Source: a virus (taxonomy: Duplodnaviria; Heunggongvirae; Uroviricota; Caudoviricetes). From it: a stretch of DNA of 3,595 nucleotides. Shown here in pieces: positions 1-3,595 of this stretch. Positions within the stretch are counted from its first letter, which is position 1. Each line of letters starts with the position of its first letter. Both the position numbers and the translations under genes were made by a program. Location of the stretch: positions 1 through 3,595 of the IMG/VR virus record IMGVR_UViG_2623620501_000012; one strand, given 5' to 3'. A model generated the notes under the pieces. It was not told where the DNA came from. It searched no databases and worked only from the letters and a program-made list of their open reading frames with translations.

Positions 1-390
1 ATGCCATTTGCTCGTTATTTCTGCATTTTCATAAATGTTGGTTTGGGAGAAGCGGCTAAAAGGAATGTAGGGACAGGGGCGAATCAGATACCTGATATGG
101 GTAGCTTCACGCTTTCTGTTTCAGGTACTGGATATCAAAAATTACCATCAGGTTTTATTCTTCAGTGGGGCTCAATCGGCGCACCAGGCATTGCACAGGA
201 TGTAGTAACCCATTTCCCGATTGCATTTCCAAACAGATGTCTGCGTGTTTTGGTCTCACAAGACTACACACCAGATAGCGGGAATGTTGGTTATATTGCC
301 TGTGCAGGTTTTAGTCCCGACCCGGTTAAATTTATATCCAGAGCCAGTACTCCTGGCCTCGGCGCTTCATTTTTAGCGTTAGGCTGTTAA
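1..390 (+). CDS. Alternative tail-fibre C-terminal (receptor-binding) cassette, silent in this orientation; functional part probably begins at the crossover site near nt 40, not at the ATG at nt 1
   Basis: ORF track 1..390 (129 aa). Codons at nt 37-54 (VGLGEA) are identical in sequence and frame to the LGLGEG codons of the minus-strand tail-fibre gene at the other crossover site. The C-terminal region ([16 protein letters not shown]) looks like a phage fibre tip domain from recollection only. No RBS or promoter is visible before nt 1. It is followed 21 nt later by a tail-fibre assembly gene. Confidence 0.6.
26..51. other. Serine-invertase crossover site (hix/gix/pix-like), left boundary of invertible segment
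   Basis: Seen in sequence: nt 38-52 ttggtttgggagaag is the exact reverse complement of nt 1935-1949. The inner half-site and central TT dinucleotide are perfectly conserved; the outer half (ttttcataaatg) is degenerate, as is typical of hixL/hixR and gixL/gixR pairs. Confidence 0.7.
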
Positions 391-411
391 TTTAGCTATA
401 TGGAGTGAAAA

Positions 412-852
412 ATGAATTACATATATTCCGCGACTACAAACTCTTTCTATCCGCTGGAGATGAAAGAGGATTACACTCAAGCTGACTCATGGCCAGATGA
501 TGCTGTTGAAGTTGATGAGCAAGTGTATATTGAGTTTTCCGGATTACCGCCGAAAGGAAAAATCCGTATCGCTGGAGAAAATGGTTTTCCTGCATGGTCT
601 GAAATTCCACCACCAACACATGAGGAACAGATTGCTGCAGCCGAACTGGAAAAGCAGCAACTGATTAATCAGGCCAACGATTATATGAACAGTAAACAAT
701 GGCCTGGTAAAGCGGCTATTGGCCGGCTGAAAGGTGAGGAACTGGCGCAATATAATTTGTGGCTGGATTATCTGGACGCACTGGAACTGGTCGATACTTC
801 CGGTGCGCCAGATATTGAATGGCCTACGCCTCCGGCAGTTCAGGCCAGATGA
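412..852 (+). CDS. Tail-fibre assembly protein (Tfa/U-type chaperone), 146 aa, partner of the silent fibre cassette
   Basis: ORF track 412..852. GGAG sits 7 nt upstream of the ATG (ggagtgaaaaATG). The C-terminal motif APDIEWPTPP matches the conserved C-terminal signature of phage tail-fibre assembly proteins. Position immediately downstream of a fibre C-terminus. Confidence 0.8.
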   Translation: MNYIYSATTNSFYPLEMKEDYTQADSWPDDAVEVDEQVYIEFSGLPPKGKIRIAGENGFPAWSEIPPPTHEEQIAAAELEKQQLINQANDYMNSKQWPGKAAIGRLKGEELAQYNLWLDYLDALELVDTSGAPDIEWPTPPAVQAR

Positions 853-1417
853 CGTCCGGCGCTGTGCTGGTATCTGTTGCCGTCACCGCGTCAATGTAAT
901 CCAGCACAGCGTTAAGTCGGGTGTTTTCTGGCTGCGTCAGCTTCCGCCCAGCCTGTAATTTCATTTGAATCAGACTGATGGAAGCCATTGCAGCATCAAT
1001 CAGCGACTGGCGCTGTGCTTCTGCCGCTTCTACTGCGGCGCTATGCTGTGCCTCGGTATCCGTCACCCATTTCTCACCATCCCATTTATCGTATGGCGTT
1101 AACGGTGAAAGCGTGACATAACCGTCTTTGATGGCACCGATATAATCCACTGTAACAGCTGCGCCATTTTCAGTTGAGTAAACGGTCTCATTACGATGGT
1201 CTTCTTCATGGCTCCATCCCTTACCCGTAAATACTGCCACTTTTCCCGGAATGTTTTCGCCCGGGTCAATACCAGTGGAACAGGCGGGTATACTTACGCC
1301 AGTATTAATATATTCATCAGACCAGCCGGTATATTCATACGTTACTGCATTATAATAAAAACAACGCATATCGCCCGGCACTGTAGCCAGCCCATTTTCA
1401 TCAAAAACAGGTTTCAT
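824..1417 (-). CDS. Tail-fibre assembly protein (Tfa/U-type chaperone), 197 aa, partner of the currently expressed fibre
   Basis: ORF track 824..1417 minus. Start ATG overlaps the stop of the upstream fibre gene (TAATG at 1415-1419). SD-like GAGGG lies upstream (reverse complement of 1424-1431). C-terminal motif APDVIWPELPEA is typical of Tfa proteins. Converges on and overlaps the other tfa gene by 29 nt. Confidence 0.8.
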   Translation of the reverse strand: MKPVFDENGLATVPGDMRCFYYNAVTYEYTGWSDEYINTGVSIPACSTGIDPGENIPGKVAVFTGKGWSHEEDHRNETVYSTENGAAVTVDYIGAIKDGYVTLSPLTPYDKWDGEKWVTDTEAQHSAAVEAAEAQRQSLIDAAMASISLIQMKLQAGRKLTQPENTRLNAVLDYIDAVTATDTSTAPDVIWPELPEA

Positions 1418-2241
1418 TATTTAGCCCTCACCAGAAAGTTAAATGCAATATTTCGTGGACGGGTTTCTGTACCTACATGTCCACTAATTTCACCATAACG
1501 TTTAACACTACGAGAGCTAAGAGCTCGTAGTGAGGAAGGCACCTTAAGACCGGGTTCGTCCGTTTTAACTATTCCCCCGTCACCATATGTAGCCAGTATT
1601 CCTGGGTTTACTCCTTCCCGTGCACTTCCTGCAGCAAGCCCGTCCCCCGTCCACAATTCCATATTGTGTGCATGATCCATAATTGTGTGTGATTGCCCTG
1701 AAAGTAGGGTACGTCCGACATCAATCCCGCGCCCATCATCCCAGATACGAATGAAATCACCCCGTGCGTCAGGTAATGCTAGCGCCGGAAACGCTTTCGC
1801 CAGCACAGGGTAATCAGTGGCAGAGAATTTCGCGCCGTTGAACTTCAAAAACACCATACTGGACCAACTGTCGATTACAGTATTTGGCATTGCGGCGGAC
1901 GGCCAGAAGAACGGAACGCCAATAGCTGGAGCACCTTCTCCCAAACCAAGGTTTTCGAGAGCCTTTTGCACCGTGCCGTCCAATTTGATATCGCCAAACG
2001 GATTCTTGCGGCTTAACAGCAACGCGCGAAGCGCGGTAAGTAGCTGATCCGTTTTTTTGGGGTCAGGTTGAATATGTGCACCACCAAGAACATTAAGGAG
2101 TTCCTGCTGTAAATCACGGGTTGCCCCCTGCTGATTGTTTAAATAACCAGCAGTCACGAGGGTTCCTTCTATCCCCTGAGTGGGGTCACCATCATGAAAC
2201 AATTGATCCGGTGTATTTATCGGGGGCATCAGATTTTGCAT
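1417..2241 (-). CDS. Tail-fibre protein, 274 aa: constant N-terminal part (aa 1 to about 97) fused at the crossover site to a variable collar-type C-terminal domain
   Basis: ORF track 1417..2241 minus. Strong SD AAGGAGG (reverse complement of about 2249-2256) precedes the ATG at 2241-2239. TAATG overlap with the upstream gene. The C-terminal half contains a phage-tail-collar-like pattern (FNGAKFS...YPVLAKAF...LPDARGDF...[14 protein letters not shown]). The crossover site encodes [10 protein letters not shown] at aa 94-103. Confidence 0.8.
1936..1961. other. Serine-invertase crossover site (hix/gix/pix-like), right boundary, embedded in the tail-fibre coding sequence
   Basis: Seen in sequence: TTCTCCCAAACCAAGGTTTTCGAGAG, a 26-bp site with a palindromic AAACC-AA-GGTTT core. 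From memory it resembles hixL (TTCTTGAAAACCAAGGTTTTTGATAA) and gix sites. The inner half is the inverted repeat of 38-52. Confidence 0.75.
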
Positions 2242-2813
2242 TACTGCTCCTCCTTATATGTGAAATGGCAATAAGTAAAAGCGGGTTTAAGGTCTTTAAA
2301 TGTTTCTTCCAGTACAGGGGCACCAAAGGAAAGTAACGGCTCCCCGGCAGCAGATACTCCGGTTCTGAATCTGTAGGCTGGCGTTCTGCTTCCTGTGACA
2401 TTAACCTGCCAAATCCATCGGGCATCTGTTATATAGAGACGATCACCACATCGGTTTATCCCCGCTCTGAATGGATGAAGTTCAGTAATTGTTATGGTGT
2501 ACCCGAGGCTGGCTGCAAGTTGTTTAAAATAAGGGATAGATAACCCACCAGTTGCAGCCATCTTTATAAGAATATTTTCTCGGCGTTCCTGCTGTGTGGC
2601 ACCGTCGCGGGGTATTACTCCATACACTCGTTCCCAGTCAGACAGCGTCATGGATGCGTAAAATGGTGTGACAGATGCAAGCACTCGTGCAGCTGACGCT
2701 TTTACTTCATCCATAATGGCTGCTTCTGCGTTCAGTTCTGCTGAAATATATTTCCCGTTCGGGTCATAGCTGACCGGTGGTAACATGGCACGAAATAAAT
2801 CAACCGTATTCAT
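2241..2813 (-). CDS. Phage tail/baseplate protein, 190 aa (probably the Mu gp48 / P2 gpI / e14 YmfQ-like family), immediately upstream of the tail fibre
   Basis: ORF track 2241..2813 minus. SD-like GGGAGAG lies upstream (reverse complement of 2821-2827). Stop overlaps the fibre start (TAATG). Family assignment rests on synteny and recollection of e14/Mu gene order, not on a verified alignment. Confidence 0.6.
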
Positions 2814-2816
2814 GTA

Positions 2817-2902
2817 TTAACTCTCCCGGGGAAATGGCTGGATATCAATACTCCCCGGACGCAGCCACTCCCATGTGGATTCATTGACAACTGCTTTTAC
2901 AT
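2817..2902 (-). pseudogene. 3' remnant (about 28 codons) of the upstream tail/baseplate gene, truncated by the IS66-family insertion
   Basis: The minus-strand frame is open from the IS boundary down to a TAA stop (reverse complement of 2817-2819), translating ...VKAVVNESTWEWLRPGSIDIQPFPRES*. There is no in-frame start codon between the IS end and the stop, and the stop lies 3 nt before the next gene's ATG, a typical operon junction. Confidence 0.45.
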
Positions 2903-2925
2903 GTAAGCGTAAACTGACCGCCGTA
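2903..2925. repeat. Probable left terminal inverted repeat of the IS66-family element (exact length uncertain)
   Basis: GTAAGCGTAAACTGACCGCCGTA beginning at 2903. The right IR is outside the window, so its extent cannot be confirmed. Confidence 0.45.
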
Positions 2926-2987
2926 TGTAGCCATCAGACGAGAATTGGTAACTTAGACGCCCATCTGATATAGACGGACATCTAAGT

Positions 2988-3413
2988 ATGGAATTACAGG
3001 ACTGGCGAAAAGAACCTCGTAAAAACTATTCGAATGAATTCAAACTTCGTATGGTGGAACTGGCATCACAACCTGGAGCTTGTGTTGCACAGATTGCACG
3101 TGAAAATGGCGTCAATGATAATGTTATTTTCAAATGGCTCAGGCTCTGGCAGAACGAAGGGCGTGTTTCGCGGCGTCTTCCGGTAACGACCTCTTCTGAC
3201 ACTGGCGTTGAATTATTACCTGTAGAAATAACGCCGGATGAGCAGAAAGAACCTGTGGCGGCCATTGCGCCGTCTTTATCCACTTCCACTCAGACCAGAG
3301 TCAGTGCCAGTTCCTGCAAGGTGGAATTCCGTCACGGTAACATGACGCTGGAAAATCCATCGCCAGAGCTGCTCACAGTGTTGATCCGTGAACTGACCGG
3401 GAGGGGAAGATGA
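2988..3413 (+). CDS. tnpA: IS66-family TnpA (Orf1, helix-turn-helix accessory protein), 141 aa
   Basis: ORF track 2988..3413. The N-terminal region (YSNEFKLRMVELASQPGACVAQIARENGVNDNVIFKWLRLW) has the HTH-like pattern of IS66 Orf1. Its stop TGA overlaps the start of the next ORF (ATGA at 3410-3413). Confidence 0.85.
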   Translation: MELQDWRKEPRKNYSNEFKLRMVELASQPGACVAQIARENGVNDNVIFKWLRLWQNEGRVSRRLPVTTSSDTGVELLPVEITPDEQKEPVAAIAPSLSTSTQTRVSASSCKVEFRHGNMTLENPSPELLTVLIRELTGRGR

Positions 3414-3595
3414 TCTCACTCCCATCAGGTACCCGTATCTGGCTCGTTGCCGGCGTTACCGATATGCGTAAATCCTTCAACGGACTGGGAGAACAGGTAC
3501 AACATGTGCTGAATGATAATCCCTTCTCCGGTCACCTGTTTATCTTCCGTGGCCGACGGGGTGACACCGTCAAAATTCTTTGGGCTGATGCTGAT
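3410..3595 (+). CDS. tnpB: IS66-family TnpB (Orf2), N-terminal 62 codons; 3' end beyond the window
   Basis: Manual translation from the ATG at 3410: MISLPSGTRIWLVAGVTDMRKSFNGLGEQVQHVLNDNPFSGHLFIFRGRRGDTVKILWADAD, open to the window end. Absent from the ORF track because no stop falls within the window. Confidence 0.8.
   Translation, partial: MISLPSGTRIWLVAGVTDMRKSFNGLGEQVQHVLNDNPFSGHLFIFRGRRGDTVKILWADAD

Follow-up and report, generated by a model that had tools for sequence, protein, structure and literature searches.

Gene content and genomic context

The window analysed here is a stretch of 3595 bp. It covers the right end of a transposable, Mu-like prophage, which is integrated in uidB of Escherichia coli RiKo 2351/09. 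The same uidB junction was sought in 5426 complete E. coli genomes, and none was found. The following features were assigned (positions are those of the window; site and segment features are unstranded):

1–25, unstranded: spacer from the left site to the start of an invertase-gene stub (source contig aligned with pinE, gin and hin)
26–51, unstranded: left (invertase-proximal) 26-bp crossover site, TTTTCATAAATG-TT-GGTTTGGGAGAA, central dinucleotide 38–39
37–390, plus strand: silent alternative fibre C-terminus (gp53-like tip; Pfam Gp53-like_C, E = 2e-15)
38–1949, unstranded: invertible segment (1910 bp between the two site centres)
412–852, plus strand: silent tail-fibre assembly chaperone, 146 aa (Pfam Caudo_TAP, E = 8e-38; PHROG 188)
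824–1417, minus strand: tail-fibre assembly chaperone, 197 aa, expressed in the present orientation (Pfam Caudo_TAP, E = 1e-27)
1417–1950, minus strand: variable C-terminal part of the present 274-aa fibre, codons 98–274 (PHROG tail collar fibre families, E = 2e-49)
1936–1961, unstranded: right (constant-region) 26-bp crossover site, TTCTCCCAAACC-AA-GGTTTTCGAGAG, central dinucleotide 1948–1949
1951–2241, minus strand: constant N-terminal fibre part, codons 1–97, outside the segment (codon arithmetic and translation)
2241–2813, minus strand: YmfQ/Mu gp48-type baseplate wedge gene, upstream in the fibre operon (Pfam Phage_Mu_Gp48, E = 2e-30)
2817–2902, minus strand: 3'-terminal 27–28 codons of baseplate gene J/gp47, truncated by an IS (the translation matches the C-terminus of gp47 from strain E2348/69)
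2903–3595, plus strand: left end of an IS66-family element (Pfam HTH_Tnp_1 and TnpB_IS66; orfA at 2988–3413, orfB from 3410)

The two Caudo_TAP genes are convergent. The 146-aa chaperone is the cognate of the gp53-like tip and is 60% identical to K-12 TfaP over 102 aa. The tip itself also matches PHROG families of tail fibres and virion structural proteins, and in many genomes this same cassette is joined to a fibre N-terminus. The 197-aa chaperone is 92% identical to its E2348/69 homologue and 62% identical to K-12 TfaE, and the variable part of the 274-aa fibre shows 43% identity to the K-12 stfE cassette. The earlier note had called this C-terminus collar-type. The PHROG tail-collar fibre families match well, but the Pfam Collar domain stays below threshold (19.6 bits, cut-off 24).

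YmfQ is 100% identical to the protein from the Mu-like prophage of E2348/69 and only 26% identical to YmfQ of the K-12 prophage e14. An identity with e14 itself was rejected on this value and on the flanks, where uidB/uidC borders one side and a Mu-like tail module the other. Similarity to other prophages stops at 2902, and the source contig terminates within the IS66-family element. This element is not part of the switch, but it interrupts the tail operon in the baseplate J gene (at 2903). With the J gene broken, the prophage may no longer produce particles, so that a role in host range may be historical.

Crossover sites

A perfect 15-bp inverted repeat had been claimed for this stretch and is present: positions 38–52 (TTGGTTTGGGAGAAG) are the exact reverse complement of 1935–1949. 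It is the longest exact inverted repeat within the window and widens to 25 nt at 84% identity (33–57 and 1930–1954). An exact inverted repeat of 15 bp occurred in 3 of 300 mononucleotide shuffles, which gives p ~0.01 from repeat length alone. A half-site consensus was built from retrieved Mu gix and K-12 e14 pix sequences. The resulting pattern (TTNTCNNAAACCNNGGTTTNNGANAA, up to three mismatches) matches the window at two places only, 26–51 (two mismatches) and 1936–1961 (one mismatch). By chance, 0.01 would be expected, and none of 200 shuffles yields two.

Alignment to known invertase sites, which had been proposed as a check, places both among the e14 pix sites. The right site is identical (26/26) to the constant-side pix of K-12 e14 and to the sites bounding an inversion in isolates CX04 and CX05 (see below). 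The left site matches the pin-side pix of K-12 e14, PCP06173 e14, E2348/69 and CX04/05 at 25 of 26 positions, the sole difference being a C-to-T change at window position 36. This AAATG variant is also present in 20KM0223N. An AAACC-NN-GGTTT core had been attributed to both sites; it is found in the right one (AAACC-AA-GGTTT), but the left one reads AAATG-TT-GGTTT. Religation after a 180-degree rotation requires that the central 2 bp are identical in both sites. This is the case here, TT at 38–39 and AA at 1948–1949 being reverse complements.

The C-to-T change of the left site lies two bases off the central dinucleotide.

A multiple-inversion system (the Rci shufflon of R64 or Min of p15B) was considered and rejected. 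Such systems have more than two crossover sites, which give several segments, and shufflons use a tyrosine recombinase and 19-bp sfx repeats. The window has only two consensus sites, its further long inverted repeats lack site character, and the adjacent stub belongs to a serine recombinase.

Reading frames and products

The right site lies, as predicted, inside the 274-aa fibre gene, with LGLGE at residues 98–102. For the left site, the in-frame VGLGEA was found in frame 1, but "codons 37–54", as given in the earlier note, are nucleotide positions. When the segment is inverted in silico at 38–39 and 1948–1949, an uninterrupted ORF of 214 aa results, in agreement with the claim that crossover causes no frameshift. 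The predicted chaperone swap is also reproduced, since the simulated crossover exchanges the 197-aa for the 146-aa chaperone. The 274-aa and the simulated 214-aa fibre share residues 1–102, made up of 98 constant codons and the repeat-encoded GLGE. This agrees with host-range switches of the Mu G, P1 C and e14 P type, in which one fixed fibre N-terminus can be joined in frame to two different C-termini, each with an assembly chaperone behind it.

Inversion in related genomes

Six similarity matches in other E. coli genomes (99.2–99.6% identical) span exactly 38–1954. One of these genomes, FDAARGOS_1262, has the segment turned round with respect to the constant part. In the sister isolates CX04 and CX05, a 1875-bp segment bounded by the central dinucleotides of these sites is present in exactly opposite orientation; to either side, the two isolates agree fully over 1500 and 2673 bp. 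This segment adjoins an intact pinE. In 20KM0223N, the constant part is 99.9% identical (1935–2902) and the stub is identical, and the collar cassette is in the orientation opposite to that of the source. Both junction types are widespread among genomes. The junction query matched in 1431 of 5426 complete genomes; junction counts at 80% coverage were not used as orientation frequencies, matches with an intact pinE covering 79.8% and thus straddling the threshold.

The closest comparison is the Mu-like prophage of EPEC strain E2348/69, which belongs to the same family as that of the source and has a constant region that is about 97% identical. The two are inserted at different sites (eutC in E2348/69, uidB in the source), and gp47 of E2348/69 does not carry the IS66-family insertion. 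The right site is the same; the left site agrees at 25 of 26 positions, reading AAACG where the source has AAATG. Cassette contents differ, with 72% identity for the fibre, 92% for the large chaperone, and 36–38% for the small chaperone and the gp53-like tip. The segment has the same orientation as in the source in the E2348/69 reference assembly. This locus (NC_011601.1, 2749478–2751398) was reported to flip, with 60 +/- 8% in forward orientation in four colonies (Goldberg et al. 2014, Genome Med, Table S1, PMC4272514). The invertase stub and the element end are as in the source (99% over 294 bp), and the stub has the same 93 bp. No intact serine recombinase is encoded across the roughly 36 kb of this prophage; intact recombinase genes are present elsewhere in the E2348/69 genome, at two P2-like loci (E2348C_RS09785 and E2348C_RS15490).

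Invertase remnant and proposed mechanism

The earlier note had expected an intact serine recombinase gene within about 1 kb to the left of the window, and its absence was named there as one half of what would speak against an active switch. Inversion systems of this family have such a gene, of about 185–190 aa, next to the segment. It is absent from the source contig, and no recombinase gene was found within 4.6 kb to the left of the window. What is left is a stub of invertase codons 1–31 (MFIGYVRASTNDQDTDLQRNALNCAGYELIF*) beyond the left edge of the window (about −29 to −121); the next 118 bp are element end, with uidB beyond. PCP06173, K-12 and CX04/05 have an intact pinE at the corresponding position. 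Because only 31 codons remain, an invertase from elsewhere would have to act in trans for the segment to flip.

Sites, genes, boundaries and the inversion in relatives all agree with an invertible tail-fibre segment of the Hin/Gin/Cin/Pin type, the class that had been proposed. Thus, region 26–1961 very probably is an invertible tail-fibre segment with two states, of Pin/Gin type, and forms part of the right end of the RiKo 2351/09 Mu-like prophage; the invertase gene of that prophage is truncated, and the switch would depend on an enzyme in trans. A serine DNA invertase would bind both 26-bp sites and introduce 2-nt staggered cuts at the central TT/AA (38–39 and 1948–1949); rotation and religation would then turn the 1.91-kb segment around. 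The 98 promoter-proximal fibre codons would not move. As the segment now lies, they are fused to the collar-type C-terminus, followed by the 197-aa chaperone; after inversion, they would be in frame with the gp53-like tip (214-aa product), followed by the 146-aa chaperone. An invertase from another resident prophage, acting in trans, would be the only route to this inversion. PinQ is reported to act in trans on e14. Inversion may still occur in RiKo 2351/09, and it would be expected to alter receptor specificity or host range.

Alternative explanations

The most serious alternative is a frozen relic, in which an ancestrally invertible segment is now locked due to the truncated invertase, the lack of a compatible active invertase and/or a dead left site. 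We consider this possible, but not the likelier case. It is favoured by the 31-codon stub as the only recombinase sequence within 4.6 kb to the left, by the disruption of the prophage by an IS, and by the left site, which differs at position 36 from all sites that were shown to recombine. For SfMu, a 1-bp change beside the site centre was suggested to impair G inversion. Against a relic, E2348/69 flips at high frequency with an identical stub, and 20KM0223N shares both the AAATG site and the stub but has the cassette in the other orientation. In addition, many E. coli genomes carry Pin-family 5' sequences, as judged from the 1431 of 5426 genomes that match the junction query, which makes a helper invertase plausible.

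Less likely, the switch may now serve the host, one orientation possibly yielding a fibre fragment that blocks the adsorption of other phages. This would be analogous to the e14 P segment, for which PinQ-driven inversion creates StfE2 and thereby blocks T2 adsorption (Kirigo et al. 2025). The IS-interrupted prophage may be defective, which fits such a role. However, the cassettes are only 27–43% identical to the C-terminal cassettes of K-12 StfP and stfE, and the complete Mu-like prophage of E2348/69 has this switch as well, consistent with a normal phage function.

It is very improbable that the orientation differences are due to RecA-dependent recombination between short repeats, or to cassette replacement, with no site-specific invertase involved. 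Cassette contents do vary between lineages, so homologous exchange of cassettes does occur, and e14 and Mu-like prophages have one cassette pair in common. Repeats of 15–25 bp are, however, too short for efficient RecA recombination, and the 60:40 and 50:50 equilibria seen within single colonies need rates far above those of homologous recombination. Moreover, pinE and pinE pinQ mutants of K-12 are locked in one orientation.

A repeat that is due to chance or is only structural (e.g., conserved GLGE coding in paralogous fibre genes) would fit the occurrence of such repeats in about 1% of shuffles and the same peptide motif being encoded by both arms, but it is effectively ruled out by the consensus-site statistics for the whole 26-bp sites and by the exact CX04/CX05 inversion bounded by the central dinucleotides; it also disagrees with the 26/26 and 25/26 identity to e14 pix and with similarity blocks elsewhere that stop at 38 and 1954.

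Comparison with characterized inversion systems

This class of switch is already well described; unusual is the reduction of its own invertase gene to a 31-codon stub. The P segment with the Pin system of e14 in E. coli K-12 is said to have been described by Plasterk and van de Putte in 1985 and by Mehta et al. in 2004. The gene order is shared with e14: a constant fibre N-terminus, a variable C-terminus, tfa, an inverted tfa, a silent C-terminus, and the invertase gene, which is transcribed away from the segment as in the source. The e14 of PCP06173 even carries the source's own cassette pair at 99.4%, whereas the source cassettes are 27–62% identical to those of K-12. The host elements differ, e14 being lambdoid and located at icd (with pinE-mcrA and ymfQ as flanks) and the source element being a Mu-like transposable prophage. 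Also, pinE is intact in e14.

Like the source segment, the G segment of Mu occupies the right end of a Mu-type genome and follows the gp47/gp48 baseplate genes on their downstream side; the Sc-Sv-U/U'-Sv' logic is common to both. Its 26-bp sites share the half-site TTNTCNNAAACC with the source. It is larger, however (about 3 kb with a 504-aa fibre), and Mu S has only a short N-terminal similarity to the source fibre (40% over 63 aa). The gin-com-mom region of Mu is missing in the source, where the element ends 118 bp past the stub.

The H segment of Salmonella, inverted by Hin, resembles the source in its recombinase family and in how the 26-bp sites are built. Hin, however, flips a promoter for flagellin genes, while the source segment codes for tail fibres, and hin is located inside its invertible segment, while the invertase stub of the source is outside.

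A precedent for a truncated invertase gene is found in prophage Phi4 of EC958, where the gene also adjoins an invertible tail-fibre segment. That segment was nevertheless seen to invert, with a trans-acting enzyme given as the explanation (Forde et al. 2014, PMC4134206). Phi4 is a different prophage with different sites (TTATCGAATACCTC and GGTTTACAGGAA), and only the C-terminal HTH domain is missing from its invertase, against all but 31 codons in the source.

The segment adds one further case to the view of Pin-family invertases and their sites as a cross-reacting network among the prophages of one cell. It also matters for annotation: the silent cassette gets called a stand-alone "gp53-like domain-containing protein", and the invertible region is left unmarked in RefSeq-style records.

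A putative enhancer in the stub

In the Hin system, the 65-bp enhancer is ~100 bp away from hix, and its Fis sites flank the sequences ATTTA and TAATG (McLean et al. 2013). It lies inside the 5' coding region of the invertase gene, and the source stretch aligns with it codon for codon (the hin sequence used was from S. enterica subsp. diarizonae). In Mu, too, the 5' end of gin contains the enhancer, and the stub has the homologous stretch. Positions −50 to −114, the counterpart of the 65-bp hin enhancer, are kept in the stub. Similarity to pin extends to ~−121, and the stub end falls within about 10 bp of the enhancer-homologous stretch. Within the predicted enhancer interval, there are two G-N13-C 15-mers, 49 bp apart, whose codon positions agree with those in hin. 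These are the two putative Fis sites, placed by homology to hin and from the published footprints. The candidate Fis enhancer in the stub may be functional.

It is tempting to speculate, as a tentative scenario that we rate as rather doubtful, that this lineage of Mu-like prophages lost its invertase but kept the enhancer stub by selection, the switch being run by the invertases of co-resident prophages. If the retention of the stub is indeed selected, this would show that a phage may leave the enzyme to others yet has to keep the cis-acting accessory site itself. The coincidence of the invertase-gene remnant with the enhancer-homologous region is the only point that goes beyond the textbook. 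Stub-bearing Mu-like prophages are inserted at different places (uidB in the source, eutC in E2348/69, next to yeiP in 20KM0223N). FDAARGOS_1262 has a second, independent truncation of the invertase, which ends about 12 bp further on.

Crossover sites and reading frames

The window carries an invertible tail-fibre segment of the Hin/Gin/Pin kind, as an earlier note had claimed. Its sites and reading frames, and inversions in relatives, support this assignment in kind and in mechanics. This is a textbook Gin/Pin-type system and already known: it uses the e14 sites, its cassettes are at least 99% identical to cassettes of many sequenced genomes, and flipping of the orthologous locus has been shown experimentally. 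That a segment with a truncated invertase can depend on an enzyme in trans has been described before, too. In E. coli RiKo 2351/09, the switch may still be active. The features are as follows.

Features of the window and of the adjoining source DNA (negative positions lie left of window position 1)
-1 to about -239 (source contig L004, 3601-3838), outside the window: invertase stub and 118-bp element end
26-51: left, invertase-proximal crossover site, TTTTCATAAATG-TT-GGTTTGGGAGAA
37-390, plus strand, convergent with the minus-strand genes: Gp53-like_C cassette
412-852, plus strand, convergent with the minus-strand genes: Caudo_TAP chaperone, 146 aa
824-1417, minus strand: Caudo_TAP chaperone, 197 aa
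1417-2241, minus strand: tail fibre, 274 aa
1936-1961: right, constant-side crossover site, TTCTCCCAAACC-AA-GGTTTTCGAGAG
2241-2813, minus strand: YmfQ / Mu gp48
2817-2902, minus strand: baseplate J/gp47, last 27-28 codons
2903-3595: IS66-family element, first bases GTAAGCG; orfA 2988-3413, orfB from 3410 (ATGA overlap)

The perfect 15-bp inverted repeat was confirmed, with 38-52 (TTGGTTTGGGAGAAG) being the exact reverse complement of 1935-1949. At 84% identity, the repeat is 25 nt long. Its length by itself is only moderately unlikely (15 bp was reached in 3/300 mononucleotide shuffles), but its arms belong to two 26-bp sites. A consensus built from Mu gixL/gixR and the K-12 e14 sites matches the window with at most two mismatches at exactly two places, 26-51 and 1936-1961 (0.01 expected by chance). 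The AAACC-NN-GGTTT core attributed to both sites is present in the right site only; the left site has a C-to-T change at window 36 (AAATG). Both sites align to invertase sites. In the e14 P segment, the site on the constant side is identical to the right site (26/26), and the pin-side site differs from the left site only by this C-to-T change (25/26). The e14 P segment has a 16-nt repeat, TTGGTTTGGGAGAAGG (Kirigo et al. 2025), the first 15 nt of which are the same as window 38-52.

LGLGE corresponds to fibre residues 98-102, and nucleotides 37-54 translate in frame 1 as VGLGEA. In both reading frames, the central TT occupies codon positions 2-3. Inversion of 38-1949 in silico results in an uninterrupted 214-aa fibre (98 constant residues plus the gp53-like tip) with the 146-aa chaperone downstream on the same strand, so that the proposed crossover at the central TT would cause no frameshift.

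A 129-aa ORF starts at ATG 1 (window 1-390), its first 12 codons being spacer and crossover site. RefSeq relatives have 130 aa and are annotated as "gp53-like domain-containing protein". Most likely, annotation has here mistaken a promoterless silent cassette for a gene. The 3' ends of the convergent chaperone genes overlap by 29 bp (window 824-852), as do those of tfaP/tfaE from K-12. The chaperone C-termini are homologous (DYLDA / DYIDA), which generates an 18-nt inverted repeat of 83% identity (762-779 / 888-905). This repeat is no recombination site.

Orientations in related genomes

A survey of 5,426 complete E. coli genomes gave best matches of two classes. Matches of the first span 1-2040 in the orientation of the window, e.g. 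the e14 locus of PCP06173 (99.4% identical, pinE 27 bp to the left). Those of the second (hits H4-H9) cover exactly 38-1954 with 99.2-99.6% identity. In FDAARGOS_1262, the one class-two genome that was fetched, the segment has the inverse orientation with respect to the constant part of the fibre gene, and a 213-aa gp53-like fibre is expressed. With synthetic junction queries, the invertase side was found joined to the gp53 cassette and to the collar cassette, and both types of right junction were also found.

The sister isolates CX04 and CX05 (4,949,012 and 4,949,001 bp) have no mismatch in the segment flanks across 1500 and 2673 bp. Between the central dinucleotides of the two sites, TTTTCATAAACG-TT-GGTTTGGGAGAA and TTCTCCCAAACC-AA-GGTTTTCGAGAG, the 1875-bp segment of one isolate is the exact reverse complement of that of the other. 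For the "Mu" locus of E2348/69 (NC_011601.1, 2749478-2751398; repeat AAACCTTGGTTTGGGAGAA), mixed orientation was reported, with 60 +/- 8% forward in four single-colony cultures (Goldberg et al. 2014). These coordinates fall between the two sites of the locus. On the chromosome of CX15 (NZ_CP081742.1), the collar cassette is joined to the constant part; in an additional 18,368-bp record (NZ_CP081745.1), it adjoins pinE. This additional record is probably spurious, having been assembled from the second orientation present in a mixed culture; comparable contigs were described for EC958 (Forde et al. 2014).

20KM0223N carries the same lineage as the window. It has a 99.9% identical constant part, an identical stub and the same AAATG variant of the left site, with the collar cassette and its 197-aa chaperone in the opposite orientation. 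This is a weak indication of continued recombination at the variant site, since the two strains differ in cassette content, too.

With 99.4-99.6% identity, the cassette pair recurs in unrelated prophage backbones, namely those of e14 (at icd), of a Mu-like prophage (at prfC) and of the source. Similarity breaks exactly at the crossover sites (window 38-1954, compared with PCP06173 and FDAARGOS_1262), so that prophages seem to exchange whole invertible segments as modules.

Invertase stub and probable action in trans

The intact serine recombinase gene expected in the neighbourhood is absent: left of the window, none was found on the source contig, which has a 31-codon ORF instead (MFIGYVRASTNDQDTDLQRNALNCAGYELIF, then stop; at the DNA level, it matches the pinE 5' end with 92% identity). 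Likewise, no intact serine recombinase was found in the prophage of E2348/69 (about 36 kb), which has the same 93-bp stub as the source. As this prophage flips without an intact serine recombinase of its own, the straightforward reading is that the enzyme is supplied in trans. The E2348/69 genome has intact "recombinase family protein" genes adjoining two P2-like invertible loci. There are precedents: the P segment of e14 is inverted by PinQ from Qin (Kirigo et al. 2025), and action in trans was inferred for Phi4 of EC958, the invertase of which is truncated (Forde et al. 2014). Phi4 and the window are alike in having a segment with a truncated invertase.

Enhancer-homologous region

Hin-type invertases require a Fis-bound enhancer in cis. 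The Hin enhancer has 65 bp, with a Fis site at each end and ATTTA + TAATG between them, and is about 100 bp from hixL (McLean et al. 2013). At the hin locus of S. enterica subsp. diarizonae, 98.5 bp separate the hixL centre from the start of the 65 bp centred on ATTTACAGCGTAATG. The source interval, which is homologous codon for codon, is GCATCAACAAATGACC...GATTTACAACGCAATG...GTGCAGGATATGAGCT (window -50 to -114). Similarity to pinE reaches about -121, past -114, so that, by this alignment, all of the region homologous to the enhancer is kept in the stub, which extends about 7-10 bp beyond it. The putative Fis sites were placed in the stub by homology and by the published footprints, and the source sequences are predicted to bind Fis. 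In FDAARGOS_1262 (L002, 6979-7092), the invertase is independently truncated: the downstream sequence is different and the break is about 12 bp further than in the source stub. Both breaks lie just beyond the region homologous to the enhancer. What remains of interest is that in both truncations, which are independent, the retained part of the invertase gene and the enhancer-homologous region coincide. This hints at selection but falls far short of demonstrating it.

Probable mechanism and function

By the mechanism established for Hin and Gin, each 26-bp site would be bound by a dimer of a Pin-family serine invertase, and two dimers would form an invertasome with the Fis-bound enhancer. All four strands would be cut at TT/AA with a 2-nt stagger, half of the tetramer would rotate by 180 degrees, and the ends would be religated. 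This would exchange the C-terminal receptor-binding part of the fibre together with the chaperone. In RiKo 2351/09, the enzyme would have to come from elsewhere in the genome. A present-day function in host range is uncertain, because particles may no longer be formed since the IS66-family element inserted into gp47. That the switch serves the host, a role reported for StfE2 of e14 (Kirigo et al. 2025), is possible but unsupported here.

Source prophage and insertion

The 274-aa fibre protein is recorded on one contig, LAUC01000044.1 (GCA_001637785.1), from E. coli RiKo 2351/09, a phylogroup B1, ST88 strain from the faeces of a healthy cow (Leimbach et al. 2016). The window is at the end of this contig, which stops within the IS66-family element starting at 2903 and interrupting gp47. 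Leftward, the source has the 31-codon stub, 118 bp ending in ...AAAAAAACGCGAAGTTACA, a truncated uidB, and then uidC, ydgA and manA. Stub and 118 bp share 99% identity with the right-hand prophage end of EPEC E2348/69, and are identical to the 20KM0223N prophage end across the compared stretch. Past the terminal CA, the host DNA differs (uidB in the source, eutC in E2348/69, the yeiP side in 20KM0223N). One prophage end thus abuts three different host sequences, which indicates transposition. In E2348/69, the element sits in eutC and is a complete Mu-like prophage, with genes for Mu transposase, AAA ATPase, Mor, head, sheath, tape measure and baseplate. Judged by the end shared with this prophage, the window is the right end of a Mu-like transposable prophage. 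As the window's element, e14 was rejected: the window YmfQ has 100% identity with its E2348/69 counterpart but only 26% with that of K-12 e14.

With its final CA, the 118-bp element end looks like the right end of a Mu-type element. The gene truncated by the insertion, uidB, codes for a glucuronide transporter. In the source contig, ydgA (DUF945) is split into two overlapping 261-aa ORFs (L004, 5392-6901), either by a frameshift or by an assembly error.
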